From positions 1,025 through 65,024 of the forward strand of contig JAWXBW010000064.1 in NCBI GenBank assembly GCA_034440395.1: 64,000 nt of DNA, given 5' to 3'. A program made the translations under genes and the position numbers. Positions 7,896 to 50,325 of this stretch are shown here, piece after piece. How positions within the stretch are numbered: position 1 is the stretch's first letter; every line of letters begins with the position of its first letter. The notes under the pieces are model-generated. The model was not told where the DNA came from. It ran no database searches and saw nothing but the letters and a program-made list of their open reading frames with translations. Source of the DNA: Blastochloris sp. GTDB taxonomy: Bacteria; Verrucomicrobiota; Verrucomicrobiia; Methylacidiphilales; JAAUTS01.

Positions 7896-8232
7896 GAATT
7901 TAAACCTAGGCTAAGTTAATAACTTATCTCGGAACTATTTAAAAAAACGATGGAAATAAATCTACTTCTCTCAACGGGGAAAATAGGTGTTATTAACCAT
8001 GTTTAAGATGTGCTTAGATTCGAGGCACATCAGATTACTAACTTTTAAACCCTCTTCAATACAGCAATAAGGGGGTGATGACGTACACTAAAAAATAATT
8101 GAGAACTAATATCAAAGATCTCATGTGTAATTTGTTAATAACTCATTAATTAAATTGCTTAGTCAATATAATCGTCTTATATATAGATATTCAGGTAAAT
8201 CTCATAGACGAACTAAACTACTCGATACAACT

Positions 8233-8745
8233 ATGAAAAATTTAAGAAAAATATTTAGTACTAGATTTAAAAGAGGCACTGCTCTTGTTGAGTTTGCTCT
8301 GGCTTTCCCCATCTTTATCTTTTCACTTTTTTTCTTGATCGATCTCTGTCGTTACTACTTTATTCAGCAGACATTTTCTCACCAAATACGTCAGACTTTA
8401 CGCACCGCCATCATTTTTGATTCAGACAATCCAGGCGCCGAAATAGTGGCGGGAACACCTAATACGCGTTCTGCTATCATTGAGAAAGTAATAGAAGACT
8501 CAAATTTGCTGAACTTTGACTTAGATGTTAAGTTTGTTGCCACTCCAGCCACGGTAGCAACGCCAACCACAGGTAAAAATGTTTTAGTCACCGTAAGTCC
8601 CGCCGATGGAGGAAAGAAAGACGAACTGCTAACCATCCAAATGGAATATGTGGATTTTAAATTCCTAACGCCATTTGTTGGCAGTTTAGGGTCACAAATT
8701 TTCCCCTTGAAAGCCAGCCTTGCCTTTGCGATTGAGAATATATGA
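8233..8745 (+). CDS. TadE-like pseudopilin / Flp-pilus assembly protein
   Basis: N-terminus 'MKNLRKIFSTRFKRGTALVEFALAFPIFIFSLFF' is the TadE-type prepilin-like leader plus hydrophobic helix. I prefer ATG 8233 to the ORF-track TTG at 8155. The stop overlaps the next start (ATGA). Confidence 0.7.
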   Translation: MKNLRKIFSTRFKRGTALVEFALAFPIFIFSLFFLIDLCRYYFIQQTFSHQIRQTLRTAIIFDSDNPGAEIVAGTPNTRSAIIEKVIEDSNLLNFDLDVKFVATPATVATPTTGKNVLVTVSPADGGKKDELLTIQMEYVDFKFLTPFVGSLGSQIFPLKASLAFAIENI

Positions 8746-9428: not shown

Positions 9429-12400
9429 ATGAAACATTACCTGCCCACTACTAAAAGTCGTTCAAAGGGACAGATCTTAGTTCTCTTTGCTCTTAGCTTA
9501 GTAGTGATATTAGGTTTTGCTGCGTTGGGCATTGATGCAGGCGGAGCCTACATTACAAAGACCAAGTTAGCTCGCGCCAATGATGCGGCCGCCTTGCGTG
9601 TGGTTAATAATTTTACAGGTGGTCGAGATATAGCGGATGCAGCAGGCCGCCAAAAATATCGTAGAGACATGGCTTTTAATGTCTTCCGAGCTAATATACG
9701 TACGTTTAATGATGGTAACCCAGCATTGGAAACTGACTGGACGTCGATTCCGGGCGTTGCGGCATCGGCTGGACCTCCCCCCGTTTCAGCCGCTGCTGCT
9801 TACTGGGTATTTTCTAAGACCTTTCCTGCAGGCCACCGTAGAGCTGGCGAGATTGACGAGTTTATTATTAAAGAAGACTCTCAGGCCTCCTCTTCTTCCT
9901 CTGCTGCTTTAAAAATCATGGAAGTCGAGATTTCGAGTAAAACATCATACCCTACCTATTTCGCTCGTGCATTTGGTCCTTTAGTGGGTGCAGGTGGTGG
10001 CTTTAACAATGTTGCTATGTCTGAAGCCGCTAAGGCGGCTAAGTATCCCACACTTAACGCTGTTATTATTGACCAATCGGGTTCCATGCTGCTCAATGGC
10101 GGAGCAGCGGTTATGGCAGATGCAGTAGAGGCTTTCGCTAAAGCTTTTGATGAAACCAGTGATCCTTTGATCGTTATTTCATTTTCTTCTACGTACGATA
10201 TCATCTGGCCTGGCATAAATGAAACTACAGGTAGATTTATTAACATTAATGCTTGTTACGGATTAAATACCTACAACGGTGCTGGAGTAGCCGCTGGCAA
10301 GACAAAAATCTACGATGCAGTAAATGCTGTCGCCTACGGTGGGGCGACAAACGCCGCTATCGGTCTTCGCGAAGCGGTTTACCAAGTCGATAACGCTATA
10401 GCTGACTTTAAAATAGCTAACCCTACACTGGCAAATAAGCTTAAGGTCAACTATATATTCATGACGGACGGGAAGTTTAATGCCTTACCTGCCTACGTGC
10501 GTGGACGCGGTTTCGGTATGAATTGGAATCCACCTGCTACATTCGGAAATTCTACTATTCCATCTGGTACGATGGGTCAGGATTTTGGCATCAGCGGATT
10601 TCCCCCTTGGCACTTAAGACGGCCTGTCTTCGGTGGTGGCACTAACTTAACCGCCGATCCTGCTGGATTCTACAAAGATAAGAACTCTGTCCAAACATCT
10701 TTTAAATACTGGGAAAGTGGTAATGTCTCGGCTACACCATCCAGCACCGTTATCTTGGCTGATAAGTTTGCGAATAGTGGTTTTAATCCAGCATTTACGG
10801 GTTGCATAAACGCGGCAGTAGGAGATCAAGATACTAGTCCATTTGCCTCGTGGATGGGTGAGTTTATGGGCGGTGAAGGCGGTGCTGGTTTAGGGGTTGT
10901 TGGCGGTGCTACAGGCGGCACAGCGCGTTGGGCTGTAAATGATGCTTTAGGCACTATGGGAGCTAAAAATTCATGGAATGATACCAATCTAAAAAATGCC
11001 CCTACCAATGCTATTCCTAACTCGACCGTCGTTTTTCCTTATAACGTCGCTATTTCTAGCTTACCAGATCCACCAAATATAGCGACAAGTTGGCCCGTAA
11101 ATTTTGATATTTCAGGTGCCACTATTGATTCCATCACCGGCACTTCCATCGTCCCTCCCAAAATACGAGACGATGCAGCGATTTTGGACACACAATTTAT
11201 TAATGTTATGCGTTTTTGTTATGATCCACGCAACTGGGAAATATGGAAGACGGACGGCGCTGCCGTGTCCGCCATTTTTGATTATGGTGGCAGCGAACCG
11301 TATAGCCCTCTGATTTCTAGGCCTAGGATTATGGTCATGCCACAACTACTTTTAAAGGATGATCCCATACCTTCGTCTGCAAACGACATTCTTGCCGTTG
11401 GTGCGGGTACGAACACCGAACAGCGCAAACGCTTCAACTACCGTCCGGGTGCTCGGGCTTTTGCTAATCATTATAATTCTTTTAGTTACGACAATCGAAC
11501 CACTATCGGCGCGGCAACCAGTTATGACGATCATTTGCTTGGCGTTGGGAAGGCTGCTCATAACTATAGCAATCGAGCCACTTCTACCTTAAAAATAAAA
11601 GATTTTTATCCTAACTTCTCGGTTGGTGGTAATGCCGACCAATTTCCGCCAACGCGTTACCAACCGAAAAAATGGGTCAGAGTAGGCGCCTACTCTCAGT
11701 TTGATATACACACACCTGCGCAAGCAGCAAATAGTACTCAGGTCGGTCAAGGGACTAATTTTGACTATGAATACTCCTCTGGCGTCAGTTCTCCCCCTTC
11801 ACCTCAATTGCCTCTTCTTGAAGCAATTAAGGCGGCTTCCACTTCGCCTTATGATACAACTTTAAACCGGACGGACATAGAGGAATGGGACCGAGTTCAA
11901 AATGCTGCTGACTATTATGTAGACACTTATGAGCCTCAAAAAATTAGTGCCGCAAAGAAATACATGTTGGCAGGTTTTTCTCTACCTCGTTTGCGTGTAG
12001 CACCTCTCATACTGGGAGACGGAATTATTCCTACGGCAACCCCGCGCCCTACTAGAACACCTACGGTAACACCTATCCCAACATCTACTCCAGCACCTAC
12101 GGCAACACCCATCCCAACTGCTACACCTCAGCCCACGCCTACGCCCACAGCTACACCAACTACCACGCCAACTCCCACGCGAACACCAACCATCACGCCA
12201 ACACCGACACGCACACCGACCCGAACTCCCACACGTACACCGACTATCACACCAACACCAACGCGCACGCCGACACCGACTATTACGCCAACGCCGACAC
12301 GTACACCGACTATTACGCCAACCCCAACGCGTACGCCGACACCGACTATTACACCAACGCCCACACGTACGCCTACACCGACCATTACGCCAACGCCCAC

Positions 12401-13268
12401 ACGTACACCCACTATTACACCCACGCCAACGCGGACACCAACGCGGACACCAACGCCGACACGTACGCCGACACGTACGCCGACTATTACACCTACTCCC
12501 ACACGTACGCCTACACCGACCATTACGCCAACGCCGACACGCACACCCACTATTACACCCACGCCGACATCTACACCCACTCCAACTCCAACAAGTACAC
12601 CGACTATAACACCAACGCCGACCCGCACTCCGACAATAACCCCAACACCAACTCCCACAATCACTCCTACCCCAACACCAACTCGCACACCGACCCGGAC
12701 GCCAACGCCGACGCCGACAATTACGCCTACACCGACACGGACTCCGACTAGAACCCCTACTCCAACGCCAACATCCACGCCAACGCCAACGCCAACACGC
12801 ACACCAACTCCGACCCCGACGATAACGCCTACCCCCACACCCGCTGGGACAGAGCAAGTAGCAGTCGTTCCTATTTTTGATGATTATGTAGGCTGGTCGC
12901 AGCTCTACTCTTATAAGCAGGGAAGATGGTTGTATTACAATTTCAACCCTGAAAATAATGCGACCAAAAGAAGCCAAAATGATGCAGTTGATGCTGCTAT
13001 TAAAGAAGAAGCTCGTTGGTTAGTGGCTGCCCAAGCCTCATTTGCGCGGCATGCTCACGAAGCCACCATTTATTGTGTAGGTTTATCTTCCAGCGAATCA
13101 AACATCGATTCAGAAATTTTAAAACAGTTAGCTAATGCCAAAGATGAGACCACCCCTTTTGACTCAACCCAAAAACTAGGAGCTTACTATTTTGCGCCCA
13201 ATGCTGCTGCTGTCACAACGGCCTTTGAAGCTATTGCACGTAAGGCGGGTGCGGTCTTAACGAAGTAA
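9429..13268 (+). CDS. TadG-N-terminal domain / von Willebrand A protein with giant insert and Thr-Pro stalk (1279 aa)
   Basis: N-terminus '[46 protein letters not shown]' is the Tad/TadG-like N-domain. vWA MIDAS 'VIIDQSGSM' (aa 212-220), 'GGATNAA' (aa 304-310) and '[10 protein letters not shown]' (aa 342-351). The vWA-type C-terminal strands 'IYCVGLSS...[20 protein letters not shown]' appear only at aa 1214-1270. Confidence 0.8.
12030..12842 (+). repeat. in-frame (Thr-X)n low-complexity array, ~271 aa, X = Pro >> Arg > Ile > Ser (words such as [10 protein letters not shown] and [12 protein letters not shown])
   Basis: Read directly from the translation of 9429-13268 (aa ~868-1138). This gives 6-nt periodicity ACN-NNN. 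Synonymous codons are scrambled between units (ACG/ACA/ACC/ACT, CCA/CCG/CCC/CCT, CGA/CGC/CGT/CGG). Confidence 0.92.
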
Positions 13269-13322: not shown

Positions 13323-13352
13323 TTGCTGTCAAGTTCTCAGAATTTTTTAATT

Positions 13353-13736
13353 ATGTCTGTTTATTCCGTTCATTCCCCTCGTGGTCAAGTTTGCCAACAG
13401 TGTCATTTCTCTAATTCTCTATTCTTTCGTATGAAAGGGTTGCTTGGCCGCACAAGTCTTGTCCCATTAGAAGGTCTATGGTTGAAACCTTGTAATAGTA
13501 TCCACATGTTTTTTATGAGGTTTTCCATTGATGCTTTGTTTTTAGATAAGCAACAATGTATTGTGAAAGTTTATCACTCCCTCCCTCCTTGGGCCATCAG
13601 CTCCCTGATTTTTAGAGCAGAATCTGTTTTAGAACTAGCCGCAGGCCGAGCTAATGAGTTAGGTCTCCAGATTGGTGATCAACTTGTTTTTACGGATACC
13701 TCGGATTCCCTTTTGGAGAAAAGTTCTCATGACTAA
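13353..13736 (+). CDS. DUF192 (UPF0127/COG1430-like) protein
   Basis: 'GLLGRTSLVPLEGLWLKPCNSIHMFFMRFSIDALFLDKQ...VLELAAGRANELGLQIGDQLVF' matches the DUF192 pattern as I remember it. I prefer ATG 13353 to the TTG at 13323. The stop overlaps the next start (ATGACTAA). Confidence 0.6.
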   Translation: MSVYSVHSPRGQVCQQCHFSNSLFFRMKGLLGRTSLVPLEGLWLKPCNSIHMFFMRFSIDALFLDKQQCIVKVYHSLPPWAISSLIFRAESVLELAAGRANELGLQIGDQLVFTDTSDSLLEKSSHD

Positions 13737-15171
13737 GAAGTCTTCTCTTCTTGTAGTTGATCTAGACGGAACCTTACTCAAGTCAGATCTTTTGTGGGAA
13801 TGCCTGCTCAGGTTTTTAATCCCGAAAGGATGGCGCATCATACAAGTCCTAGCATGGATTTTTCAAGGAGGGCCGAGTTTACTTAAAGCCCAACTTGCTC
13901 ACCATGTAAAGCTAGACGCTAGTACTTTGCCTTGGAATGAGAGCGTTGTTCTCTTCTGTGAAAAGTGGGTGAGGGAAGGCGGCAGGGTAGTTATCGCTAC
14001 CGCTTCTAATCAAGAACTTACCCAGAAAATTACCCAGCATTTCAGCTTCGTTTCTGTGGTGATCGGAAGCACGTCCACTTGGAACGGTAAAGGAGACCAA
14101 AAAGCTCTGCGTTTAGTCGAGACTTATGGTGTTTCAGGATTCGACTACATGGCAGATAGTTCAGCGGATATTCCTGTCTGGAAAGTTTCGCAGCAAGCAT
14201 GGTTTGTCGGTAGTAAGATGAAGCATCGTAGCTTACAACGATCGTGTGCAGCGGAACTACATCATCTAGCTGAATCAGATCAATCGTTGCACATGGGATT
14301 TTTAAAAGCGATTCGACCCCATCAATGGTTGAAGAATGTTTTAGTTTTCGTTCCTTTGATTGCAGCACATCGCTGGAGCGAGATCATGGTTTGGCAACAA
14401 ACACTACCAGCTTTCTTTTCCCTTTGCTGCATGGCTTCCGCCTCATACCTATGGAATGACATGGCAGATATTGAGGCAGATAGACGCCATCCGGCGAAAA
14501 AACATCGCCCCATTGCTAGCGGTTCACAAGGGATACCAGTGGCCGTTTTGTCAATGTTCGGGTTATTTAGCCTAGGTATCTTAGCGGCATGGTCAGCAGG
14601 ATTAATTGTAGTGCTAGCAAGCTTGGCCTATTTTTTCCTGTCCCTCATCTATACGATAAAAATTAAAACAATTCCCGTTTTTGATGTCCTCTTTCTTTCG
14701 GGCTTATATACTTATCGTATGGTGTTAGGCGGCCTAGCTGCCAGCGTCATGATCTCCCCTTGGTTGCTGGCTTTTTCTACGGCCTTTTTTCTGGGGCTAG
14801 CTTTTCTCAAGAGGTATGTGGAATTAAGTGGATCAGATCCCAAGGAAGCTAACGAGTTGTTTTCGCGCCGGGGCTACGTGCAAGGAGATAGTTTATTTAT
14901 CTTAATTGCAGGACTCTGTTCCAGTTTTTTTTCGATCGTCGTTTTAGCACTCTACCTTGACAGCTCTGCCAGTAAGGTTCTATATCAAAGCCCTGAACGA
15001 TTATGGGGTATTGCGCTGGCTTTACTGGCTTGGAATCTTTACGTCTGGTTCTTAGCCCTTAGAAAAAAAATGTGTGAAGATCCCGTCTGGTTTGCCGCCA
15101 GAGATCCTGTGACTTACGGCCTAGCTTTCCTTAGCCTTCTTTCCATCGCCTTATCCGGCCCACGTGCATGA
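13729..15171 (+). CDS. fusion protein: HAD-superfamily phosphatase domain + UbiA-family polyprenyl-phosphate phosphoribosyltransferase (DPPR-synthase-like)
   Basis: HAD motif I 'LLVVDLDGTLLKSD' at the N-terminus. The UbiA part has 'IRPHQWLKNVLVFVPLIAAH' and 'NDMADIEADRRHPAKKHRPIASG' (NDxxDxxxD), followed by multiple TM helices. ATG 13729 fits better than the upstream track start at 13672. Confidence 0.8.
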   Translation: MTKKSSLLVVDLDGTLLKSDLLWECLLRFLIPKGWRIIQVLAWIFQGGPSLLKAQLAHHVKLDASTLPWNESVVLFCEKWVREGGRVVIATASNQELTQKITQHFSFVSVVIGSTSTWNGKGDQKALRLVETYGVSGFDYMADSSADIPVWKVSQQAWFVGSKMKHRSLQRSCAAELHHLAESDQSLHMGFLKAIRPHQWLKNVLVFVPLIAAHRWSEIMVWQQTLPAFFSLCCMASASYLWNDMADIEADRRHPAKKHRPIASGSQGIPVAVLSMFGLFSLGILAAWSAGLIVVLASLAYFFLSLIYTIKIKTIPVFDVLFLSGLYTYRMVLGGLAASVMISPWLLAFSTAFFLGLAFLKRYVELSGSDPKEANELFSRRGYVQGDSLFILIAGLCSSFFSIVVLALYLDSSASKVLYQSPERLWGIALALLAWNLYVWFLALRKKMCEDPVWFAARDPVTYGLAFLSLLSIALSGPRA

Positions 15172-16481
15172 GTGGAGTTAATAAAACTCTAAGTTCGTGG
15201 GGAGGAAACCAAAGCGTAGGCTCGAAGGTTTACCGCACTTCTTGGAGAAGTGAGCCCTTACCGAAGGTTTCTACGAAGCTACTGGCTTATGGCATGGGGC
15301 GCAGTTACGGCGACTCGTGTCTTTTAAATAACGGGACTTTCATCGAAACGCATGATCTGAATCATTTTATTTCTTTTGATTCATCTCGTGGTCTCATAAG
15401 GGTCGAGGCCGGCTGTACAATGGCTGCATTGTTGCGTTTCTGTGTTCCGCACGGGTGGTTTGCGCCCGTCACGCCAGGGACTAAGTTTGTCACCTTAGGC
15501 GGATGTTTGGCCAATGACATCCACGGGAAAAATCATCACAATGCAGGAAGCTTCGGCTGTTTTGTACCACGTTTCGGATTAAGGCGTTCAGACGGTTCAG
15601 AGCTAGAGTGTAGCCCTGATCGTAACCCTGAGCTGTTTTGTGCGACTATTGGCGGGCTAGGTTTGACTGGGTTAATCCTGTGGTTAGAACTTCAACTTAA
15701 ACCTATTCGCAGCCCGCTGATTTCACAGACGAAAACGTTGTTATCAGGATTAGACTCTTTCTTTGAACATGCGGAAAAAGAAGAAGCTGAATTTGAATAT
15801 TCCGTAGCGTGGTTAGACGTCACGCACAAGGGCAAACCGCGCGGTGTCTTTCTCGCAGGCAATCACGCAAAGCAAGCATCCGCTCTTGAGCACACCTTAC
15901 CTGTCCCTCTTCTTTCCTTACCCTTTCAGTTACCCGATGCGGCCTTGTCTGGTTGGTCTATCGGGTTAATGAATAGCGGCTATTATTTATCAAACGTCTT
16001 CAGTCCGAAGCGTAATGAACTGTTTTACGATTCTTTTTTTTATCCTCTTGATTCCGTAGCTCACTGGAACAGAGCGTATGGGGCGAAAGGGTTGAGACAG
16101 TATCAATTTGTTGTGCCCCGCCAGAATGGGTTGGACGTTTTAGCCGAAGTTTTGGACAAGGTGCAGGTCGCTCGGCAATCGTCATTCCTCACCGTTGTTA
16201 AACTATTTGGAAATAGGCGCTCCCCTGGGATACTGTCCTTTCCGAGAGCAGGCGTCACCGTTTGTTTTGATTTCCCTAACTTGGGTGCTGCCACGGAACG
16301 GCTACTTGATGATCTCGACACCACCGTCTTCTCCTGTGGCGGAGCTCTTTATCCAGCCAAAGACTGTCGCATGAGTCCAGACGCCTTCGAGCGTTCCTTT
16401 CCTAAACACAAAGAGTTTAAAAAATGGATCGACCCAGCCTTTGCTTCAACTTTTTCTCAACGCATAGGTTTAACATCTTAA
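15168..16481 (+). CDS. FAD-binding oxidoreductase, DprE1-like (polyprenyl-phospho-ribose 2'-oxidase-like)
   Basis: 437 aa. 'GMGRSYGDSCL' and 'TLGGCLANDIHGKNHH' are typical of the FAD_binding_4/DprE1 family. ATGA overlap with the upstream gene. Confidence 0.78.
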   Translation: MSGVNKTLSSWGGNQSVGSKVYRTSWRSEPLPKVSTKLLAYGMGRSYGDSCLLNNGTFIETHDLNHFISFDSSRGLIRVEAGCTMAALLRFCVPHGWFAPVTPGTKFVTLGGCLANDIHGKNHHNAGSFGCFVPRFGLRRSDGSELECSPDRNPELFCATIGGLGLTGLILWLELQLKPIRSPLISQTKTLLSGLDSFFEHAEKEEAEFEYSVAWLDVTHKGKPRGVFLAGNHAKQASALEHTLPVPLLSLPFQLPDAALSGWSIGLMNSGYYLSNVFSPKRNELFYDSFFYPLDSVAHWNRAYGAKGLRQYQFVVPRQNGLDVLAEVLDKVQVARQSSFLTVVKLFGNRRSPGILSFPRAGVTVCFDFPNLGAATERLLDDLDTTVFSCGGALYPAKDCRMSPDAFERSFPKHKEFKKWIDPAFASTFSQRIGLTS

Positions 16482-16502
16482 CGCCATTTGTAGGTAAAGA
16501 TC

Positions 16503-17231
16503 ATGAAACACATACTAGTTCTAGGCGCCACCTCAGCCATGGCTCAATCTCTTTGCAAGCTCTATGCAGTTTCGGGTTCACACTTTTATCTGTTAGGCCG
16601 TAATGAACAAAGGCTAAACATCGTGGCCGCAGACTTACTCGTGCATGGGGCGCAAGCGGTTGAAGTTAGGGTGGTTGATTCGTTTCCCCAATTAAAAGCA
16701 GCGGCCGAAGAGGCCTGTCAGCAAGCAGATGGATTAGATTTATTCTTAGCAGCTCAAGGGTCATTGCCTTCACAAGAAATAGTGGAAAAATCTGGTGAAT
16801 CAGTCAGTGAACTTTTTCACGCTAATGCGGTGCAAATCATGGATGCGTGTCTTTGTGTAGCCTCTTTTTTTGAAGCTCAAGGGCACGGAACCTGTGTGGT
16901 AATAGGCTCTGTGGCAGGAGATCGTGGTCGTCGTAGCAACTATCTTTACGGTGCATCAAAGGCTGCACTAGAAGTTTTTTGTGATGGATTGCGTCAACGA
17001 CTTGAACCTAATTGTTCGTTAGTTTTTATCAAGCCAGGTCCCGTTGATACGCCCATGACATCCCATTTAAAGAAGGGGGCACTGTTCAGCACCTCCGAAA
17101 AAGTGGCTAAAGATATTCTCAGCGGAATTGAGCGAGGCAGTGCTGTTGTTTACACGCCTTCTTATTGGAAATGGATCATGCTCGTGATTAAGCTTCTACC
17201 TGATAGCGTAGTAAAACGACTACGTGCTTGA
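16503..17231 (+). CDS. short-chain dehydrogenase/reductase, DprE2-like
   Basis: 242 aa. N-terminal Rossmann 'VLGATSAMAQ', catalytic 'YGASKAAL' (YxxxK) and 'KPGPVDTPM'. The position after the DprE1-like gene matches the dprE1-dprE2 order. Confidence 0.75.
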   Translation: MKHILVLGATSAMAQSLCKLYAVSGSHFYLLGRNEQRLNIVAADLLVHGAQAVEVRVVDSFPQLKAAAEEACQQADGLDLFLAAQGSLPSQEIVEKSGESVSELFHANAVQIMDACLCVASFFEAQGHGTCVVIGSVAGDRGRRSNYLYGASKAALEVFCDGLRQRLEPNCSLVFIKPGPVDTPMTSHLKKGALFSTSEKVAKDILSGIERGSAVVYTPSYWKWIMLVIKLLPDSVVKRLRA

Positions 17232-20200
17232 ACAACCACACAGCTCTGACAATCTCTACTATCTTGAAACTCGAGCCGACACAACTTCCTGAGCAGCACG
17301 ACCCCATCAAAAAAAGCACTCGCTGGTTGTTGATCCTCATTCTATGCCTCGGAGCATTACCACGTTTTATGTGGTCAGATTGGGACGATTTTAAGGGTCA
17401 ACATCCTGACGAGCGACATATCATGATGTGTACGAGCAGCCTAGCTTGGCCCCAGTCTATTGGTCAGTTTCTCAATGAATCAGCATCCCCGTTAAATCCG
17501 CGCAATCGTGGAGCACATTATTTCGCTTATGGAACCTTACCTAGCACCATGCTGAAGGGTCTGACAGAACTTGGCACGGTGCGGGACGGGCTGCAAGTAG
17601 CTAAGTTATCGCGTGGTTTCTCGGCCTTTGCGGATACCTGCGTAATTGGCCTTGTATTCTTACTAGCATGGACGCTGTATCGTCGAGCATCCGTCGCTTT
17701 ACTGGCCGCAGCTTTTTACGCTATGTGTGTACTGCCGATTCAACACGCTCATTTTTTCGTAGTAGATCCGTTTGCAAATTTCTTTGTGACCTTAGCCCTG
17801 ATTTTTCTGGCTCGAGCGTGGCGCAGTGGGGGATGGAAAGACTATGCCGCAACAGGTGTAGCTCTAGGCTTAGCTATCAGTTGTAAAATCTCAGTTGCCA
17901 CTATGGGATTACCCGTGGCACTCGTCGCTCTCATTCCATTAGTGGGAGAAAAGCACAGAATTTCTCAACGTCTTCTCACAGCGATTTTTCGCACAGCCGT
18001 TTTTTCCCTAGCGACAATCATTACGGTTAGATTCGCTTTGCCCGATGCTTTCTCTGGCTTTTGGCCGTGGCAACTTGCACCACGTTGGGTGGCTAACATG
18101 CGAGAGGTTGTCAGTATAAGTACAGGTGTCATTGATATTTTTTTCACGCGTCAGTTCTACAACCGCATTCCCCTACTCTGGCCTTGGTGGAACATGGTGG
18201 CGTGGGGAATGGGGTTAGCACTTGGTCTGGCTGCGTGGGCAGGTTGGTTGAAGGCACTTTGGCAAATCATCACGAAGCGCATCTGGGCCCATAGCGTTTT
18301 AGTGCTTTGGGTGGCGGTAGTATTTTTTCATATGGGCTTTACCTACCAATCAACCCTACGTTACTTCCTCCCCATTTACGCACCCCTTTGTATTTTAGCA
18401 GCAGTTTTTCTTCTGCCGCGCACCTTCACTTACCTGAGTTTTTTGCGAAAAGGACTCGTCCTGAGTGTTTTCTTTTTTACGCTAGCTTGGGCTTTTGCGT
18501 TTCTAGCTATTTATCAAAAACCCATGACGAGAATCGAAGCCTCGAATTGGATTTATGACAACATCCCCAAAGGCAGCTCGCTTGCTTGCGAGCATTGGGA
18601 TGACACGATTCCCTTACCTTTCAATGCAGAACGAACTTCTGAATTTTATCAATACGTCGAGATGCCGCTTTACGTGGTGGATAATCCAGAGAAGCGAGGT
18701 CAGCTCTTAGAGAAGTTAAAGAGCGCAGATTATATTATTCTAGCGAGCCAGAAATTACGGGATTCGATTCCACGTATGCCGCACCGCTACCCCTTGACCA
18801 TACGTTACTATGAGTGGCTAGAGGATGGCACCCTAGGTTTTGATAAAGTCGCAGAATTTACCCGCCCCATGATTTTTTTAGGCTTACCAATCTCAACGCG
18901 AAGTGCGGAAGAAGCCTTCAGCGTTTACGATCATCCGCCCGTGGTCATTTTCAAAAAAACAGAACGCTACGACCCCCAGAAAGTGGTCGATCTTTTCAAT
19001 GCCGTTTCTTTAGATGGCGTAACGGACACTCGCGAGCCAGCGGAAGAATTTAAAGAGCTTCCGATAGAAAAAGTTGTTAAGAACAACCAAGAGGTAGCCA
19101 AGGCAGAACCTAGCGTCTTGCTTAAGCCAGCACGCTGGGCCGCAGCTCAAAATGAAGGGACATGGAGAGACTTCTTTGATCGAAACTCCTTCTCAGTTCG
19201 CTATCCCGTAATTGTCTGGGTGCTACAACTCATACTTTTACAATGGATAGGCTGGGTCTGTTTAGCTCCACTGCTAAAATGTTTGCCTGACCGTGGAGCG
19301 GCTCTTGCCCGACCCCTCGCCATACTTATTCCTTGCTGGATCCTGTGGCTTTTAGCTAGCTCTGGCATCATGAAAAACCAGCCGGCAACGTATTGGCTTA
19401 TTCTATCTTTTTTTATTTTAATCACGGCCAGGATCACATGGGTGAATCGTCGCGAGTGGAAAAATAAGTTTAAAATCACGGGAAACGAGGGCTTAGCGGT
19501 GGAAGGAGTTTTCTGGCTTGGTTTTACCCTCTTTCTCTGTATCCGTTCTTTAAACCCCGACGTATGGCACCACTCTTGGGGTGGGGAAAAGCCCATGGAG
19601 ATGACCTTTCTTTATGGCGTGATTAAATCAGACCATTTTCCGCCCATGAATCCTTGGTATGCGGGTGGCTTTATTAATTATTACTATTTCGGATTTGTTC
19701 TATGCGGAACTTTAATTAAGAGTTTGGGAATTTTACCTGAAGTGGGCTTTAACTTATGCCTAGCAACTTTTTTTGGGATGGCTTGTGCGGCCACCATGTC
19801 TTTTGCCCGAGCATTTCGACCACAAAATTCCCGGCTAGTGGCATTTGCCGCTACGGCCTTTGTCATGCTAATCGGTAACTTGTTCCAAATCCGGTTCATC
19901 TGGAATCGGCTTCAGCTTCTAGGAGCACCAGATCATGACCTGACTTTTCCCATCGTCTCTGATCTAATCCGTGCTGGTTACGGATTATTTCATGTTGCTG
20001 GCGAGGCCACGCTAGGCAACTACCCAGCTGATCTATACTGGGTAGCAGCTCGTGCGATCACGGGGGAAGATGTTGCCCCAGTTACGGAGTTTCCCTACTG
20101 GAGTTTTCTCTACGGTGATTTGCATCCGCATCTCATAGCACTTCCCTACACACTTTGTCTGTTAGGTCTTCTTGTGGCGTGGATTCGCTGTGACTCTTTT

Positions 20201-27748: not shown

Positions 27749-29185
27749 ATGAGTAATAGAAAAATTTATTTAGCGGTAGATTTAGGCGCTAGCAGTGGGC
27801 GCGTTTTGGCAGGTATTTATGACGGGGAAACAATAGAGCTGCGTGAGTTAAATCGTTTTCCGAGCGAAGCCTTTCAAAAAGACGGGAGTTGGCACTGGAA
27901 GTTTGACTCCATTTTCTCCCATATTAAAAAAGGCATAGCTTTAGCAACGGCTGAGTATGGGGAAGCAGTGATTTCTTTAGGCGTGGATACGTGGGGGGTG
28001 GATTACGGCTTGATTGATGGGGAAGGGAACTTATTAGAGCAACCCTACCAGTATCGCGATAGTCGCACCGATGGGATGATGGAAAAGGCTTATGGGCTTA
28101 TGCCGAAGTCAGAAATCTACCAGCGGACGGGGATTCAGTTCATGTTTTTTAACACATTATTTCAACTCCTAGGCGAGCAAAATTCTGGGCGTAGTTTGAT
28201 GGAGAAGGCTGATCGTTTGTTGTTTATGCCCGACTTGGTAAATTATTTTTTAACAGGCCGTAAGGTCAATGAGCGTTCGATTGCCAGCACGGGTCAGTTA
28301 TTGGATGCAAGGTCGCAGAGTTGGGATCACGAGTTGTTAAAAGCCATGGGTTTTCCTGCCTCGATATTTGGGGAATTGGTGGAGGCGGGGACGGTGCTAG
28401 GTGAATTGAAGCCTGAACTGGCGAGGGAGCTAGGATCAAGCACGCTGAAGGTGGTGGCCGTGGGTTGTCATGACACGGCCTCGGCTGTGGCGGGTGTTCC
28501 TGCGTTGGAAGCGGATCCTGTTTTTTTAAGCTCGGGGACCTGGTCACTGATCGGGCGGGAGTTAAGTTGCCCAATCTTAACGACGGAAAGTTTTAAGGAA
28601 GGTTTTTCTAATGAAGGTGGGGTTTTAGACACGACTCGATTTTTAAAGAATATCGCTGGCATGTGGCTAGTCCAAGAATGTAAAAAGAAGTGGGACGAAC
28701 AAGGGCAGGAAATCAGCTTCGGAGAATTAGTCGAGCTGGCACAGAAGGAGAGTGGGGCTTTAGGACTGATTGACCCAGATGCTAAGGAGTTCCAAGCTCC
28801 AGCGGATATGCCAAAGGCGATTGCGGATTACTGTCGGGCGAGGGGACAGGCGGTGCCAGAGAGGCCTGGGCAATTCGTGCGGATGATTCTAGAAAGCTTA
28901 GCGGATCGTTATGCAGAGGTGAAAGTTTCGCTAGAAAAAGTGACGGGACGTGAGGTGAAAAAAATCTACATCGTCGGAGGTGGATCGCAGAATCGGCTCT
29001 TGAACCAATTAGCTGCTAATGCCACGGGCTGTGAAATCGTAGCGGGACCAGTTGAGGCCACTTCGTTGGGGAATATTTTAATGCAAATGATTGCTAGTGG
29101 AGACTTGAAGGATTTAAAGGAAGGTCGCAGATTAGTAGCAAAGTCTTTTGCGGTAGAAACATTTCTGCCAAATATTAAAAATTAA
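27749..29185 (+). CDS. rhaB: rhamnulokinase-type FGGY sugar kinase
   Basis: 478 aa. Near-colinear with E. coli RhaB motifs '[11 protein letters not shown]', '[11 protein letters not shown]', 'YRDSRT', '[13 protein letters not shown]', '[10 protein letters not shown]', '[14 protein letters not shown]' and '[12 protein letters not shown]'. Confidence 0.85.
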
Positions 29186-29192
29186 AAACTGT

Positions 29193-29951
29193 ATGAGTGA
29201 ACTTTTAGATCGGTTAGTGACCTTGTCCCATGAACTGGGTAGGGAAGAAAGAAAACTGGCAATACTTGGTGAGGGTAATACTAGTGCAGACATCGGGGAT
29301 GGAACTTTTTGGATCAAGGGTTCTGGCAGCTCTCTGGGCACGATGCAGCCGCAGCAATTTTCCCGGGTGAAGCGTCAAGAGGTATTAGACTTCGTGGACA
29401 GGGACGCTACGGAACAGGAAGTGCAGGATTTTTTACAGGCCAGTCGAGTGGATGTCTCCCAACCTCATCCTTCGGTAGAGACTTTTCTTCATGCACTTTG
29501 TATGGAGCTAGGTGGGGCGAAGTTTGTCGGACACACGCATACGGAATCTATGCTTTCTATTTTAGCCAGTAAAGCTGGAGCGGAGCCTTTCTTACGACAT
29601 ATCTATCCCGATGTGATCGTGGTGTGCGGGCGTCATGTAGCGGTAGTGCCTTATGTGGACCCCGGTTTGGAATTAGCTCAAGCGGTGCGGGCGGAGTTGA
29701 TTCGTTATCAAGAAAAACACGGCAAGGGACCGAAGCTTCTCCTGATGGTTAATCATGGACCCGTAGCTTTAGGGCAAACAGAAAAAGAAGTTTTAAATAT
29801 TTTATTAATGGCGGATAAGTGGGCCAGAGCTTTAAACCAAACTCACGCTTGGGGTGGACCTAACTATATGAGTGAGGTCGATTCTGACCGTATTGATAGC
29901 CGACTTGACGAACATTTTAGACGTAAACAAATTTTAGCCGCTAACAAATAA
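29193..29951 (+). CDS. class II aldolase/adducin-family protein (fuculose/rhamnulose-phosphate aldolase-like)
   Basis: 252 aa. 'GEGNTSA', 'WIKGSGSS', '[12 protein letters not shown]' and '[15 protein letters not shown]' parallel FucA 'GNVS...HNHAVH...HHGLIA'. Confidence 0.75.
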
Positions 29952-29976
29952 GTAAACCACCAACACAAACAAATTC

Positions 29977-31779
29977 ATGAAAAACCAAACATACAGCTGC
30001 TGGCAAGGAAAACTACCCCGTATTGGAATTCGTCCCACGATCGACGGACGTCTGGGCGGTGTGCGTGAGTCGTTAGACACGATTACGTTGAACATGGCGA
30101 AGAGTGTGGCTAAATTAATTTCCTCCACCCTGCGCTATCCAAACGGAGAGCCAGTGGAGTGTGTGGTGCCTCCAACCTGTATCGGTGGCGCAGCGGAAGC
30201 GGCCTTAGTGGCGGAGCAGTTCCAAAATGAGAACGTAGGTGTTTCCCTAACGGTGACGCCTTGCTGGTGCTACGGTTCAGAAACGATGGATCAAGATCCA
30301 TTGATCCCGAAAGCGGTCTGGGGTTTCAATGGCACAGAACGTCCTGGTGCTGTATATTTGGCCGCTGTGCTTTCTGGGCACACACAAAAAGGTTGGCCTG
30401 CTTTCGGCATCTATGGCCGTGATGTGCAGGATGCAGGCGACACAAAAATCCCAAACGACGTTTCAGAAAAAATCTTACAGTTCGCCCGCGCTGGTTTAGC
30501 TGTGGCCTTAATGAAGGGTAAGTCCTATCTAGCCATGGGCGGAACCTCCATGGGTATCGCGGGCTCCATTGTGGATCAAAGTTTCTTTGAGCGCACCTTA
30601 GGTATGCGGGTAGAATCAATCGATATGACAGAGTTTATCCGTCGCATGGATAAAGGCATCTACGATCAAGCAGAATATAAAAAAGCACTTACTTGGGTTA
30701 AAAAGAATTGCAAAGAAGGCAAGGACTATAACTCCGCTAAAACGAAACGTGACCGTGCTCACCTCGACAAGGAATGGGAATGGTCCGTGCAGATGGCTTT
30801 AATTGCTCGGGATCTCATGATTGGTAATCCAGCGCTAGATGAAATAGGTTACGGTGAAGAAAGCTATGGGCATAACGCCATCGTCAGTGGTTTTCAAGGT
30901 CAACGTCAATGGACAGATCATTGCCCAAATGGTGATTTCATGGAAGCGATCCTTAGCTCATCCTTCGACTGGAACGGCATACGCGAACCGTTTATGGTGG
31001 CCACAGAAAACGATGCGCTTAATGGTGTGACCATGTTGTTCGGACACCTCTTAACAAACACCGCACAGGTTTTTGCTGATGTCCGCACCTACTGGAGCCC
31101 TGATGCGGTCAAGCGCGTGGCGGGTCATAAATTAACAGGCACAGCTGCAGGTGGATTTCTCCATTTGATTAACTCAGGCCCTGCTGCTTTAGATGGATCT
31201 GGTGAGCAAAGTGTTAAAGGCAAGGCCGCCATGAAGCCCTTCTGGGATATAACTGAATCTGAAGCGAAAAAGTGTTTAGATGCGACGAGTTGGCACCCCT
31301 CTATTACGGAATATTTCCCTGGCGGCGGATGGTCCACTCGTTATACCACGAAGGGCGGCATGCCTGTAACCATCGCCCGTTTGAACTTGGTTTATGGTCT
31401 AGGACCGGCACTACAGATCGCAGAAGGCTGGTCGGTCGAGCTACCTAAAAAAGTTAATGACATCTTAGATCAACGCACTAATCCTACGTGGCCTACGACG
31501 TGGTTCGCTCCTCGCACGGGCGGCACAGGTGTCTTTCGAGATGTTTACTCCGTCATGAATGCGTGGGGCGCAAATCACTGCGCTTTGAGCTACGGACACA
31601 TCGGGTCTGAATTGATCACTCTAGCTTCCATGCTACGCATCCCCGTTTACATGCACAACGTGGCAGAAGACAAGGTGTTCCGTCCAAGTTATTGGACATC
31701 TTTTGGAACTAATGACCATCAAGGTGCCGACTTCCGCGCTTGTGAAACACTTGGGCCTCTTTACGGAAAAAGAGGTTAA
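29977..31779 (+). CDS. fucI: L-fucose isomerase
   Basis: 600 aa and colinear with E. coli FucI. Matching strings are '[21 protein letters not shown]', '[14 protein letters not shown]', '[16 protein letters not shown]', '[10 protein letters not shown]', '[13 protein letters not shown]' and 'WPTTWFAPR'. Confidence 0.92.
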
Positions 31780-31810
31780 ATTACAAGCCCGTCGTCCTTG
31801 ACCATTTACC

Positions 31811-33310
31811 ATGAACCAATCCTCATTTATAGATAACCCAGATGTAGTGCTCATCGGCAGCGGTGTCATGTCCGCCAATCTCGGAGCTATGCTGAAACGT
31901 TTAGAGCCTAAGCTCAAAATTCAGCTCTATGAAGTGACAGAAGACTTGGCACAAGAAAGCTCTAACGGTTGGAACAATGCGGGAACTGGGCATGCTGGTA
32001 TTTGCGAGCTTAGCTACACGCCGAAACGTGAAGCGGATGGTACGGTTAAGGTGGATAAGGCGGTAGAGATATTCGAACAGTTCCAACGCTCAAAAGAATT
32101 TTGGAGCTACGCCGTGAGTACGGGCATGATTAATAATCCAAAAGAATTTATTAATCCTGTTCCACACCTTAGCTTCGTGCATGGACAAGACCAAGTGGAC
32201 TTTCTCCGGGCACGTCATGCGGGCATGTCCGCCCATCATTTTTTTGAAGAGATGGAGTATTCTACAGATCCAGAAAAAATCCACAAATGGGCACCGCTTT
32301 TAACCGAAGGTCGCTCGAACATCCCTATCGCAGCGACTCGTATGATGGGTGGGACGGATGTGAATTTCGGTGTCGTCTCCCACAAGCTCCTGCATTGGCT
32401 GGGGCAGCAAGAGGGCTGCGGCATTGCTTGCAATCATCGGGTCGTGGGATTAGAGGAACAGGGGGGTAATTGGAAATTAACCATTCGCAATCTAATGACG
32501 AATAAACTCCGTCATAGCACAGCAAAATTTATTTTTATCGGCGCTGGCGGAGGGAGTTTAACCTTGCTTCAAAAATCTGGAATCCACGAAAGCAAAGGAT
32601 TGGGCGGTTTTCCTATCGGCGGGCAATGGTTAGTCTGTGACAAGCCAGAGATCGTAGCTAGACATCAAGCAAAAGTTTATGGACAAGCTCTCGCCACGGC
32701 TCCAACCATGGCGGTGCCACACCTAGATACTCGTGTTTTAGATGGAAAGAAGACCTTGCTCTTCGGACCTTTTGCGGCGTGGACGACAAAGTTTCTCCAT
32801 AAAAAAGGTAGTTACCTAGACTTACCCTTATCAGTTAAATTAGACAATCTGGCCACCCTCATTAAAATTGGTTTATATAATATCGATTTAGTAAAGTACC
32901 TGATTCAGCAAGGCACGCAAAGCATGGCGGATCGCATGAAGGTTTTGCACGTCTTCTATCCATCCGCCCAAACTAAGGATTGGAAGTTGATAGATGCAGG
33001 CATCCGGGTTCAGGCCATAAAAAAAACAGATGGAGAAGCTGGAATTGTCCACTATGGCACGGAAGTCATTACTAATGCTAGCCGCACGATATCCGCCCTG
33101 TTAGGAGCTTCTCCTGGAGCTTCGGTTTCTGTTCACGTTATGCTGGAAGTAATTAAAAACTGTTTTCCTGAACTTCTGAAAACACCAGAAGGCCACTCCC
33201 GCATGAAGGAAATGATTCCTACTTATGACGAGGATATTAAAAGGCCAGAATTAGCCGAGCGTTTTAAAGCAGTCAGCCAGAAGACGGATGAGATACTTGA
33301 GTTGATATAA
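31811..33310 (+). CDS. mqo: malate:quinone oxidoreductase
   Basis: 499 aa. 'DVVLIGSGVMSANLGAMLKRLEP', 'NNAGTGHAGICELSYTP' and 'GASPGASVSVHVML' are typical of Mqo. Confidence 0.9.
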   Translation: MNQSSFIDNPDVVLIGSGVMSANLGAMLKRLEPKLKIQLYEVTEDLAQESSNGWNNAGTGHAGICELSYTPKREADGTVKVDKAVEIFEQFQRSKEFWSYAVSTGMINNPKEFINPVPHLSFVHGQDQVDFLRARHAGMSAHHFFEEMEYSTDPEKIHKWAPLLTEGRSNIPIAATRMMGGTDVNFGVVSHKLLHWLGQQEGCGIACNHRVVGLEEQGGNWKLTIRNLMTNKLRHSTAKFIFIGAGGGSLTLLQKSGIHESKGLGGFPIGGQWLVCDKPEIVARHQAKVYGQALATAPTMAVPHLDTRVLDGKKTLLFGPFAAWTTKFLHKKGSYLDLPLSVKLDNLATLIKIGLYNIDLVKYLIQQGTQSMADRMKVLHVFYPSAQTKDWKLIDAGIRVQAIKKTDGEAGIVHYGTEVITNASRTISALLGASPGASVSVHVMLEVIKNCFPELLKTPEGHSRMKEMIPTYDEDIKRPELAERFKAVSQKTDEILELI

Positions 33311-44368: not shown

Positions 44369-45022
44369 ATGGCAAATATTTTCCCGACTTGGACGAAGTG
44401 GCTACCGCTCAAACTGGTTATCGCAATGCTCTGCCTAGGCACGATGACGGCGGTGGCTGTTACTTATTACTTCACTCCCAAATATACCCGAGTAGGTTAT
44501 CAACCCATCCAACCCGTCAGCTTCGATCATTCCCTACATGTCAACCAACTCGGTATCGACTGCCGTTACTGCCATCAATCGGTTGAGGTATCTGGCACGT
44601 CTAGCGTTCCCTCAACGCAGACCTGCATGACTTGTCATACGCAAATAAAAAAGCAGAGTCCTAAGTTGGAAATTGTTCGCAGTAGTTGGGCTACGGGCGA
44701 GTCTATTCCTTGGGTGAAGATTCACAAAGCGCCTGACTATGTTTATTTCAATCATGCCATTCACGTGAACAGTGGAGTCAGTTGTTACAGTTGCCATGGC
44801 CAGATAAATCAAATGGAGGTCGTGTGGCATGACCAGCCGCAAAGCATGGGCTGGTGTTTAGAATGTCACCGCCATCCTGAAGGTAATGTTCGTCCTAAGG
44901 ATCAGGTCTATAACATGGACTGGCGAGCCGAGAGTCCTTCGGTGCAACGTAAAGAAGGTCAGAAATTTGTAAAGGAATGGAATATTAACCCGCCCGTAAA
45001 TTGTGCAGCCTGCCATCGCTAA
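44369..45022 (+). CDS. actA: Alternative Complex III subunit ActA, pentahaem cytochrome c
   Basis: 217 aa with an N-terminal TM anchor. Five CxxCH motifs are present: CRYCH, CMTCH, CYSCH, CLECH and CAACH. Confidence 0.85.
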   Translation: MANIFPTWTKWLPLKLVIAMLCLGTMTAVAVTYYFTPKYTRVGYQPIQPVSFDHSLHVNQLGIDCRYCHQSVEVSGTSSVPSTQTCMTCHTQIKKQSPKLEIVRSSWATGESIPWVKIHKAPDYVYFNHAIHVNSGVSCYSCHGQINQMEVVWHDQPQSMGWCLECHRHPEGNVRPKDQVYNMDWRAESPSVQRKEGQKFVKEWNINPPVNCAACHR

Positions 45023-45028
45023 GACCTC

Positions 45029-48000: not shown

Positions 48001-48343
48001 TCTGCAAGTGGCCTGCCAACAGGCTTGCCCAGCAGACGCCATTGTCTTTGGTGATCTATCCGATCCTAACAGCCGTGTGACAAAACTTAAATCACGTGAG
48101 CTTGACTACAGCCTATTAGATTATTTAAACACCAGACCCCGTCTAACCTATCTAGCTCGTGTCCGTAATCCTAACATGCGTATGCCTGGTGCAGAACTAG
48201 TTGGAATGAGCCTTGTTAATGCTCGTATCCATCACCATGCTGAAACAGAAGGGCACGGAGAAGAAGGCGCAGCACACGGCGACACTAAAGCTCATGGACA
48301 TGAGGCCGAAGCAAAACCAGCGGAACATGGATCTAAACATTAA
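45029..48343 (+). CDS. actB: Alternative Complex III subunit ActB (molybdopterin-oxidoreductase-like + 4Fe-4S ferredoxin-like fusion)
   Basis: 1104 aa. Tat signal '[23 protein letters not shown]'. Fe-S motifs are '[16 protein letters not shown]', '[14 protein letters not shown]', '[19 protein letters not shown]' and 'CTFCVQR...[14 protein letters not shown]'. Confidence 0.9.
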
Positions 48344-48348
48344 GTGAT

Positions 48349-49776: not shown

Positions 49777-49782
49777 TCGCAT

Positions 49783-50325
49783 ATGAAAGAGGATCAGAAA
49801 AAAATTCACGGTATTGGAGCCGAATTTAACAACGCTCAAGAACTCTATGTAGCCGCTAAAAAACTGCGCGCATCAGGTTTCAAGCGGTGGGACGTTTTTT
49901 CTCCATACCCTATTCACGGCATGGATGACGCCATGGGACTCCCTAACTCTAAAGTCTCCTTCTTCTCTCTTTGTGGAGGCATCGTGGGAGCCGCCACAGC
50001 CTTCTTCCTTATTTGGTACACCTCAGGGGTGGAGTATCCCTTAGTAGTGCAAGGTAAACCGCACTTTGCCTTTGAGCCGACTTTTCCAGTCTTTTTTGAA
50101 ATAACGATTCTTCTGACGGCGTTCTTCACCGTGGGAAGTATGTTGGTCTTAAATTTCTTGCCCCGCTATTATCACCCCGTTTTCAACTGGGATCGTTTTG
50201 CTAAAGTTACGGACGATAAATTTTTTGCCGTGATCGAGTCGTCGGATCCGCTCTTTCATGAGGCAAAAACAAAAGCACTTTTGGAGGATTTAGGTGGCAC
50301 GCATGTGACGCTCATTGAGGAATAA
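49783..50325 (+). CDS. actD: Alternative Complex III subunit ActD (DUF3341)
   Basis: 180 aa. 'IHGIGAEFNNAQELYVAAKKLRASGFKRWDVFSPYPIHGMDDAMG' is followed by two TM helices, which is the typical ActD layout. Confidence 0.75.
   Translation: MKEDQKKIHGIGAEFNNAQELYVAAKKLRASGFKRWDVFSPYPIHGMDDAMGLPNSKVSFFSLCGGIVGAATAFFLIWYTSGVEYPLVVQGKPHFAFEPTFPVFFEITILLTAFFTVGSMLVLNFLPRYYHPVFNWDRFAKVTDDKFFAVIESSDPLFHEAKTKALLEDLGGTHVTLIEE

Follow-up and report, generated by a model that had tools for sequence, protein, structure and literature searches.

Here, we describe a strictly alternating threonine array encoded within a 64,000-nucleotide (nt) stretch of DNA labelled Blastochloris sp. (contig JAWXBW010000064.1 of assembly GCA_034440395.1; hereafter the window), and the pilus-associated protein in which it resides. 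The array spans 271 amino acids (aa 868-1138; nt 12030-12842) of a 1279-aa open reading frame (ORF); nucleotide positions throughout are those of the window, and aa numbers are residues of this ORF. We think it likely that the array serves as a linker of Thr and Pro that is disordered, stiffened by proline and polycationic, probably O-glycosylated, and situated in a hypervariable loop of a TadG-like subunit at the tip of a Tad pilus. The array is placed between the halves of a split vWA domain, its DNA is a degenerate minisatellite that is decaying at synonymous sites and still recombines, and it is present in two length alleles whose amino acid differences all avoid Thr.

The threonine array and its host protein

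The ORF at 9429-13268 on the plus strand reads as a single 1279-aa translation (ORF list and translation), and re-translating it confirmed the coordinates, residue numbers and composition given in an earlier note, made from the sequence alone, that first drew attention to the array. The 271 residues comprise T131, P89, R23, I17, A5, S4, V1 and Q1, with no acidic residues; Thr and Pro together account for 81% of them and Pro alone for 33%. A regex scan recovers a strict (Thr-X)118 core at aa 903-1138, in which Thr occupies 118 of 118 odd positions and X is P77, R21, I15, S3, A1 and T1, just as the note had it (mainly Pro, then Arg, Ile and Ser). Among the other 1008 residues of the protein Thr has a frequency of 6.7%, so that a chance origin of the array is excluded. 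A spacing rule can be added to that description: the 41 non-Pro X residues are never adjacent to one another (0 pairs, against ~14 expected), so that each Arg, Ile or Ser is embedded in P-T-x-T-P. The note had also predicted regularly spaced positive charges; the Arg residues are there, although their spacing (mostly 4, 10 or 12) is only roughly regular.

The array region has a GC content of ~59%, compared with 47.6% for the window, and a strong skew of C over G and of A over T. No second such array is present in any frame of the 64-kb window. Two long minus-strand ORFs overlap the array (11982-12977, 331 aa; 12128-12838, 236 aa), and one reverse frame reads GVGVGV... across it; we rejected both ORFs as genes, and regard them as stop-free shadows of the ACN/CCN composition.

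By its sequence relationships the host protein is a TadG-type minor pilin, with a vWA domain split by a large variable insert that holds the array. The VWA and VWA_2 matches in the N-terminal half are weak, and positions 4-114 of the 174 in the VWA profile are covered there. The variable insert (~500 aa) gave no match in Pfam, NCBIfam or PDB sequence searches, and contains two family motifs, one YYPxGRxYAN-like and a second of 10 residues. A word-indexed homology search with the array removed returned only the sister allele described below, and the family emerged only in an exhaustive HMMER search with aa 1-867, which recovered 453 relatives. The 30 homologues that were read are 359-1165 aa long and have in common the N-terminal 380 aa and a C-terminal module (...ATIYTV...MAN...GxYY...F.DIA.RI...), the exceptions being a fragment (P0002) and a doubtful ORF (P0126). 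Among 35 aligned family members, the Pfam models Tad, VWA_2 and VWA match 34, 30 and 24, respectively. A scan of genome contigs with aa 1-867 gave distant matches only, in Verrucomicrobiia and Patescibacteria.

The split in the vWA domain is seen when the family profile is aligned to the 220-aa vWA chain 4rck: its positions 170-225 fall on residues 21-84 and its positions 678-740 on residues 148-215, with ~450 profile positions between the two pieces. An AlphaFold2 (AF2) model of aa 151-1279, built from the alignment of 35 sequences, is confident for aa ~160-470 and 1155-1279 and of low confidence over the whole insert, with the array rendered as coil without strands at a predicted local distance difference test (pLDDT) score of ~30. 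The best PDB match found by Foldseek is the vWA minor pilin PilB of S. sanguinis (7ba2), and pilus adhesins and integrin/ANTXR2 vWA domains also match; the vWA matches have a TMt of ~0.5 over ~150 of 177 columns.

Within the family, the array sits between the motifs DFYPxFxxGG and YSFxxxxW, where the length of the homologues is highly variable. No T-X run longer than 8 aa occurs in 150 family homologues, and the array appears to be a lineage-specific insertion. Because it lies inside the insertion in the vWA domain, its ends would be held by folded parts, and its probable role is that of a loop or tether and not of a stalk. The extended spacer proposed in the earlier note is thus consistent with the AF2 coil as far as disorder goes, and is recast as to its topology. 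There is no LPXTG cell-wall anchor, the C-terminus being the vWA half that ends in ...AGAVLTK.

One segment of the insert (~11079-11282; aa 551-618, around NWEIWKTD) has 38-41% identity to three Hainich groundwater contigs (L003, L023 and L024), one of which belongs to a metagenome-assembled genome (MAG) of Patescibacteria; this segment may be a small shared module.

Table. Features of the threonine-array locus and of the genes flanking it
Feature	Position in window	Strand	Basis or remarks
TadE-like pseudopilin gene 1	8155-8745	+	Pfam TadE PF07811, E 4e-9; called elsewhere (contig L010) as 170 aa from ~8233
TadE-like pseudopilin gene 2, 223 aa	8742-9413	+	Pfam TadE, E 9e-10
1279-aa ORF, TadG-like minor pilin with split vWA	9429-13268	+	ORF list; Pfam; family; Foldseek
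N-terminal Tad/pseudopilin hydrophobic segment, aa 14-58	9468-9602	+	Pfam PF13400, E 3e-8, 34.1 bits against a cut-off of 22.3
N-terminal vWA half, aa 212-349, with MIDAS-type DQSGS and MTDG	10062-10475	+	VWA E 0.011; VWA_2 E 6e-4; pLDDT 75-94
Lineage-variable insert in vWA, aa 361-867	10509-12029	+	Family alignment; low AF2 confidence
P/T-rich array, 271 aa	12030-12842	+	Composition; ~59% GC; excess of C over G and of A over T
Strict (Thr-X)118 core, aa 903-1138	12135-12842	+	Regex scan; X-position rules
33-nt segment AACTCCCACACGTACACCGACTATCACACCAAC	12224-12256	+	Two copies in the 321-aa allele, spaced 150 nt; site of the 150-nt indel junction
Longest exact repeat (38 nt), copies 1 and 2	12360-12397; 12498-12535	+	Spacing 138 nt; TRF period of 138 nt, 2 copies, 83% matches
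C-terminal 141 aa, vWA half (ATIYCVGL ... GAYYF ... AFEAIARKA)	12843-13265	+	Family profile; pLDDT 83-95
DUF192 gene	13323-13736	+	Pfam PF02643, E 3.5e-18; fourth member of the cassette
HAD+UbiA polyprenyl-phosphoribose synthase (PPPRS)	13729-15171	+	NF006088 UbiA/HAD fusion, above cut-off
DprE1-like gene	15168-16481	+	DprE1 equivalog model, strong but below cut-off
DprE2-like gene	16503-17231	+	DprE2 equivalog model, strong but below cut-off
GT-C glycosyltransferase, 1458 aa	17228-21604	+	PMT_2 + DUF2298, TIGR03662 chlor_Arch_YYY

Duplication history, length alleles and constraint on threonine

Every synonymous codon for Thr and for Pro (four each) is used in the array, together with five for Arg, and one 10-residue peptide that occurs in five copies is encoded by five different DNA sequences; synonymous codons are thus diverse, as the earlier note reported, but their scrambling falls short of the maximum. 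All 131 Thr codons have AC at their first two positions, and third positions are largely randomised. TRF found no perfect tandem repeats in the array, only degenerate periods of 12-138 nt (among them 30, 36, 66 and 138 nt) with 60-83% matches, in agreement with the view that this is not a slippage tract of perfect repeats.

The further suggestion in the note, that scrambling might reflect selection against recombinogenic repeats, is not supported by what we find. The longest exact internal repeat is 38 nt, compared with 18.2±2.6 nt (maximum 29) in 500 shuffles that permuted synonymous codons among positions of the same amino acid, and repeated 12-, 15- and 18-mers also exceed these shuffles (z = 9, 11 and 14). 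Exact repeats are spaced 66 and 138 nt apart. Third positions of identical peptide units agree in 45% of cases against 29% expected (z = 3.5), with particular codons kept at particular positions (e.g. CCA in 5/5 at the first Pro), and the 150-nt indel at a 33-nt direct repeat described below likewise lends no support to repeat avoidance. The array DNA is a degenerate, decaying minisatellite that still recombines, in which old block duplications are decaying at synonymous sites.

Two alleles of the array are known, each found in three assemblies. That of the window (813 nt, 271 aa) is identical, with 0 differences, in ENA ERZ505514 NODE_839 – which differs from the window by 1 nt over 17.3 kb – and in NCBI MAG GCA_964551655.1. 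The second allele has flanks that are 99% identical, an array of 321 aa (963 nt) and a strict T-X run of 286 aa, and is nucleotide-identical in JGI Ga0105049_10000251, ENA ERZ27246989 k141_1513311 and the 360-kb contig Ga0209490_10000002. They differ by one in-frame indel of 150 nt, with its junction in a 33-nt perfect direct repeat of the long allele (positions 2481-2513 and 2631-2663 of contig L001). The two 150-nt periods of the long allele are 83% identical, and it is converted to the short allele, with fewest mismatches, by deleting any 150 nt that start within L001 2481-2514, a range of 34 nt. An alignment with two gaps (120+30 nt) has 24 mismatches vs 29 for a single event, and was replaced by the single 150-nt event at the 33-nt repeat. 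Such an indel is what unequal recombination or slippage leaves behind at an island of identity. Comparison of related strains, which the earlier note had recommended, thus does reveal length polymorphism (271 vs 321 aa), but in the form of one 150-nt indel and not of perfect-repeat contingency.

Codons changed between the alleles amount to 7.7% in the array, 3.8% upstream and 3.5% downstream. The eight amino acid differences in the array are all at X (R>P five times, R>Q, P>S and I>T) and none is at Thr, whereas six Thr codons have changed synonymously. The identity of Thr is under purifying selection, and these differences, together with the AC kept in 131/131 Thr codons, support the long-term selection on the peptide that had been proposed earlier.

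Alternatively, the array could be a neutral low-complexity expansion tolerated in a hypervariable surface loop, its Thr pattern reflecting a founding unit and weak constraints. Homologues do differ widely in length and low-complexity content at this site, and none of the 150 family members examined has the array; its length varies between near-identical strains, and its codon differences are about twice those of the flanks. We nonetheless regard neutrality as unlikely, since 0 of the 131 Thr codons has lost Thr despite the largely randomised third positions, non-Pro X residues are never adjacent, every replacement between strains avoids Thr, and comparable arrays have arisen independently in other Tad minor pilins.

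Proposed mechanism, neighbouring genes and remaining alternatives

In the mechanism that we favour, blocks of 30-150 nt were duplicated and then drifted at synonymous sites, with unequal recombination continuing wherever a few tens of identical bases survive, and giving rise to the in-frame 271- and 321-aa alleles. Selection holds Thr at every second position and keeps non-Pro residues (Arg, Ile, Ser) flanked by Thr-Pro, while exchanges of Arg, Pro, Ser and Ile at X are tolerated. Because of its position between the vWA halves, the array most likely stands out from the protein as a flexible loop or tether of considerable length, which would be at the pilus tip, with a contour length that we estimate at ~80 nm if polyproline-II-like, and a net charge of ~+23. 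By analogy with actinobacterial PT linkers, its Thr residues are most likely densely O-glycosylated and the array is predicted to resist proteases, and it could form a hydrated, sticky brush with an adhesive or spacer role.

Several points weigh against this reading. Glycosylation, extension and location at the pilus tip are each something that we infer, as are disorder and the adhesive or spacer role; what the data show directly is the sequence pattern, the host family, the split vWA topology, the history of duplication and recombination, the allele difference and the constraint on Thr. The pLDDT of ~30 may partly reflect the shallow 35-sequence alignment, and the low AF2 confidence over the insert extends to the spatial relation of the array ends. 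The constraint on Thr is drawn from two alleles of one species-level population, with 21 changed codons, and from comparison of internal paralogues. Lastly, no TadA/CpaF ATPase, TadB/C, prepilin peptidase or Flp pilin was found among the ~30 large window ORFs scanned, with ~17 ORFs outside that scan.

Should the reading be right, the vWA domain of a subunit at the tip of Tad pili can accommodate a low-complexity tether of great length, a property relevant to surface reach and adhesion. The evolution of such a linker would then be one of block duplication, synonymous decay, unequal crossover at short islands of identity and strict selection for Thr. The practical value is modest: the array may serve as a test substrate for bacterial O-glycosylation systems, and as a warning, since short-read assemblies break at it.

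The two TadE-like genes, the TadG-like gene and the DUF192 gene (see table) are found in the same order on the contig of the closest array-less homologue (P0003). The presence of DUF192 in the minor-pilin cassette in both places suggests an unrecognised accessory role in the module. Beyond it, the genes at 13729-21604 make up, by domain content, a complete three-component cassette for polyprenyl-phosphate-pentofuranose (arabinofuranose-type) glycosylation. The tad and glycosylation cassettes are co-directional, with neighbouring genes overlapping by 4-8 nt or lying no more than 55 nt apart, and the PPPRS start overlaps the DUF192 end by 8 nt. No terminator-like site is present between 13268 and 13729, in a promoter and terminator scan whose counts ran below those in shuffles. 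No tRNA or Rfam families were found in the window.

This arrangement raises the possibility that the array is the acceptor of the downstream arabinofuranose (Araf) pathway, with the giant GT-C O-arabinosylating its Thr residues to give an extensin- or mucin-like pilus tip, an idea that would refine rather than displace the linker interpretation. We give it a small chance, equal to that of neutral expansion. In its favour, the cassettes are co-directional and near-contiguous with no terminator-like site between them, the domain set matches that of three-component pentofuranose systems, which have the same gene set (PMC11127046), and there is a precedent in Pseudomonas aeruginosa, where the GT-C TfpW adds O-linked D-Araf to Thr/Ser of group IV pilins, via homologues of DprE1, DprE2 and DPPR synthase (bioRxiv 10.1101/2020.04.19.049825). 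The array-less homologue P0003 also has the tad cassette without the glycosylation cluster. The linkage is not conserved, however, since pilin and GT-C cassettes occur together in 0/4 other loci inspected. A cassette with a 61%-identical GT-C (L018) lies among GT2 and UDP-galactopyranose mutase (GLF) genes, which suggests a role in a cell-envelope glycan, and a 59%-identical GT-C (L017) has no tad genes within 10 kb upstream, on a contig that ends ~80 nt downstream of the gene. TP-array TadE-like pilins of Thermoflexus and Anaerolineales likewise lack such a cluster within 10 kb, and no flippase gene was identified. Somewhat less probable still is the most specific version, in which the tip would bear a brush of more than 100 O-linked pentofuranose chains and the array would be the dedicated acceptor of the adjacent PMT_2 + chlor_Arch_YYY system. 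Were it true, the DUF2298/'YYY' glycosyltransferases would have their first assigned substrate in the array, and bacteria an equivalent of plant extensins or mucins.

That the array results from misassembly, or is a phase-variable contingency repeat, is very improbable, although it is plainly an assembly hazard. Three short-read contigs from Lake Vanda mat libraries end inside it, at 12506, 12766 and 12769 (L011, L012 and L013), and a contig from SRR5468149 (L021) begins inside the 321-aa allele. The MAG GCA_964551655.1 (L009) has a 10-N scaffold gap in place of ~24 nt, ~190 nt downstream of the array (equivalent to window ~13031), and is a mosaic whose flanks resemble those of the 321-aa allele around an array of the 271-aa allele, i.e. 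a strain-chimeric consensus. Both alleles are reproducible all the same, each being identical in three assemblies, and collapse or expansion is unlikely because the longest exact repeat (38 nt) is well below the read length of the Lake Vanda libraries (2x151 Illumina; PMC11080526). The existence of two length alleles does not make the array a contingency repeat, as it has no perfect tandem repeats and the 150-nt in-frame indel alters length without on/off switching. The earlier opinion that the array is not an assembly artefact can be upheld.

Ice binding is classically associated with the T-x-T motif, and the antifreeze glycoproteins of fish consist of glycosylated Thr repeats. A period of two does not, however, put Thr on one face of a polyproline-II helix, and the same array type occurs in pilins labelled Thermoflexus sp., a thermophilic genus, both of which count against ice binding. 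Although the contigs of this locus come from the mats of Lake Vanda, an Antarctic ice-covered lake (PMC11080526), we reject an ice-interacting element as the least probable explanation of all, as one residue in three is Pro (33%), incompatible with the flat beta-sheet faces of T-x-T binders, and the AF2 model is a coil (pLDDT ~30) with neither strands nor a beta-solenoid.

The contigs of the locus derive from Antarctic lake microbial mats, including the Lake Vanda runs SRR6448204 and SRR6448206 (PMC11080526). The NCBI label 'Blastochloris sp.' (Alphaproteobacteria; proteins MDZ4789221-MDZ4789239) conflicts with the 47.6% GC content and with the Verrucomicrobia homologues: the best named homologues of the GT-C are from Verrucomicrobia MAGs (55-59% identity), and the one TadG relative in the genome collection is from a Verrucomicrobiia MAG. 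The source contig is probably mis-binned or mislabelled, and Verrucomicrobiota is the most likely taxon. An origin in Chloroflexota (Anaerolineae A4b), suggested by a Lake Vanda MAG of matching GC and by the chlor_Arch_YYY hit, was rejected in view of these GT-C homologues and because the study that yielded that MAG also contains Verrucomicrobiia MAGs of equal GC. Elsewhere in the window are phytoene/squalene synthase, acyltransferase and GT2 genes (21662-24418) that resemble a cluster for carotenoid glycoside esters, a cluster for the catabolism of deoxy-sugars (fucose/rhamnose; 24666-33310) in which a DeoR regulator is accompanied by FGGY kinases, class II aldolases and L-fucose isomerase, and an alternative complex III-type operon (44369-52179) with a multihaem cytochrome c, an Fe-S subunit, NrfD-like and ActD proteins and a cytochrome c.

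Comparison with known systems

TadE-, TadF- and TadG-type minor pilins have been modelled at pilus tips with the variable domain of the large subunit exposed, and vWA minor pilins are described as tip adhesins or mechanosensors (PMC12075869, PMC12607857). The protein described here resembles the TadG/CpaL- and PilB-type minor pilins in its N-terminal pseudopilin segment, its vWA domain with a DxSGS MIDAS-type motif and its TadE-like neighbours, and differs from them in having its vWA domain broken up by an insertion of ~860 aa, the 271-aa T-X array being part of it. We know of no described TadG, CpaL or PilB with such a T-X insert in its vWA domain.

Strict period-2 repeats of hundreds of residues are familiar from Gram-positive adhesins, in the Ser-Asp repeats of the Clf/Sdr proteins and the (Ser-X)n repeats of the serine-rich repeat glycoproteins. 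Their DNA is degenerate, their length varies among strains, and in the known cases they are O-glycosylated by dedicated enzymes. The array shares with them a strict period-2 repeat of a hydroxy-amino acid, degenerate DNA and strain-variable length, whereas it combines Thr with Pro, Arg and Ile rather than Ser with Asp or Ala/Val/Glu, and is cationic rather than anionic. It is also internal to a domain, in a protein with neither an LPXTG motif nor a wall-spanning position, and no SdgA/B, GtfA/B or accessory Sec genes were found among the window ORFs scanned.

The TfpW system is similar in gene set, with Thr/Ser acceptors in a pilin, homologues of DPPR synthase, DprE1 and DprE2, and a GT-C. Its substrate in P. 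aeruginosa is the major pilin, modified at few sites, and tfpW is located beside pilA with the Araf genes elsewhere. The GT-C of the window, by contrast, combines PMT_2 with DUF2298, and its linkage to tad is not conserved.

With the array as query, more than 2000 TP-rich proteins were recovered among 8000 candidates scored. Measured in the best 120 of these matches, the longest strict T-X run per protein reaches 148 aa, with 50 aa as the median. The array of the window is the longest and strictest found, but a member of a widespread, uncharacterised class. Counterparts in a similar context are P0171, P0183 and P0186, TadE-like pilins that bear the labels Thermoflexus sp. and Anaerolineales, with C-terminal, Arg-rich TPTxTPT arrays of ~150-180 aa broken by Cys-containing motifs (LCPPSVC; L014/L015 10001-11146 and L016 10001-11179), which are encoded in TadE-TadG(vWA)-TadE cassettes beside tad machinery genes. 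They have the same TPTxTPT grammar, frequent Arg at X and a place among Tad minor pilins inside tad loci. Unlike the array described here, which is internal, longer (236-286 aa strict) and on a TadG-like subunit, theirs are shorter C-terminal tails of small TadE-like proteins with Cys breaks. TP arrays on Tad minor pilins thus recur across unrelated lineages, which suggests a general, unstudied design feature.

The closest characterised relatives are the PT-box linkers of Cellulomonas fimi Celf_3184 and Caldicellulosiruptor bescii CelA, linkers of a kind that is O-mannosylated in actinobacterial glycoside hydrolases. Enzymes of Cellulomonas and Caldicellulosiruptor have PT linkers with heavy O-glycosylation, in which Thr residues are densely modified by a polyprenyl-phosphate-sugar-dependent GT-C (GT39), and these linkers are thought to be protease-resistant (PMC12757957). 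Both they and the array are low-complexity sequences of alternating Thr and Pro, presumably extended, between folded modules of an extracytoplasmic protein. The array differs in being ~5-10x longer (271-321 aa vs ~30-65 aa), in holding a strict period of two over 118-143 dipeptides with Arg or Ile at X and a charge of ~+23, and in lying inside the vWA domain of a pilus subunit and not between catalytic and binding modules. It is an extreme case of the common proline/threonine-rich linker and, if our reading is right, an extreme natural example of a period-2 Thr linker.

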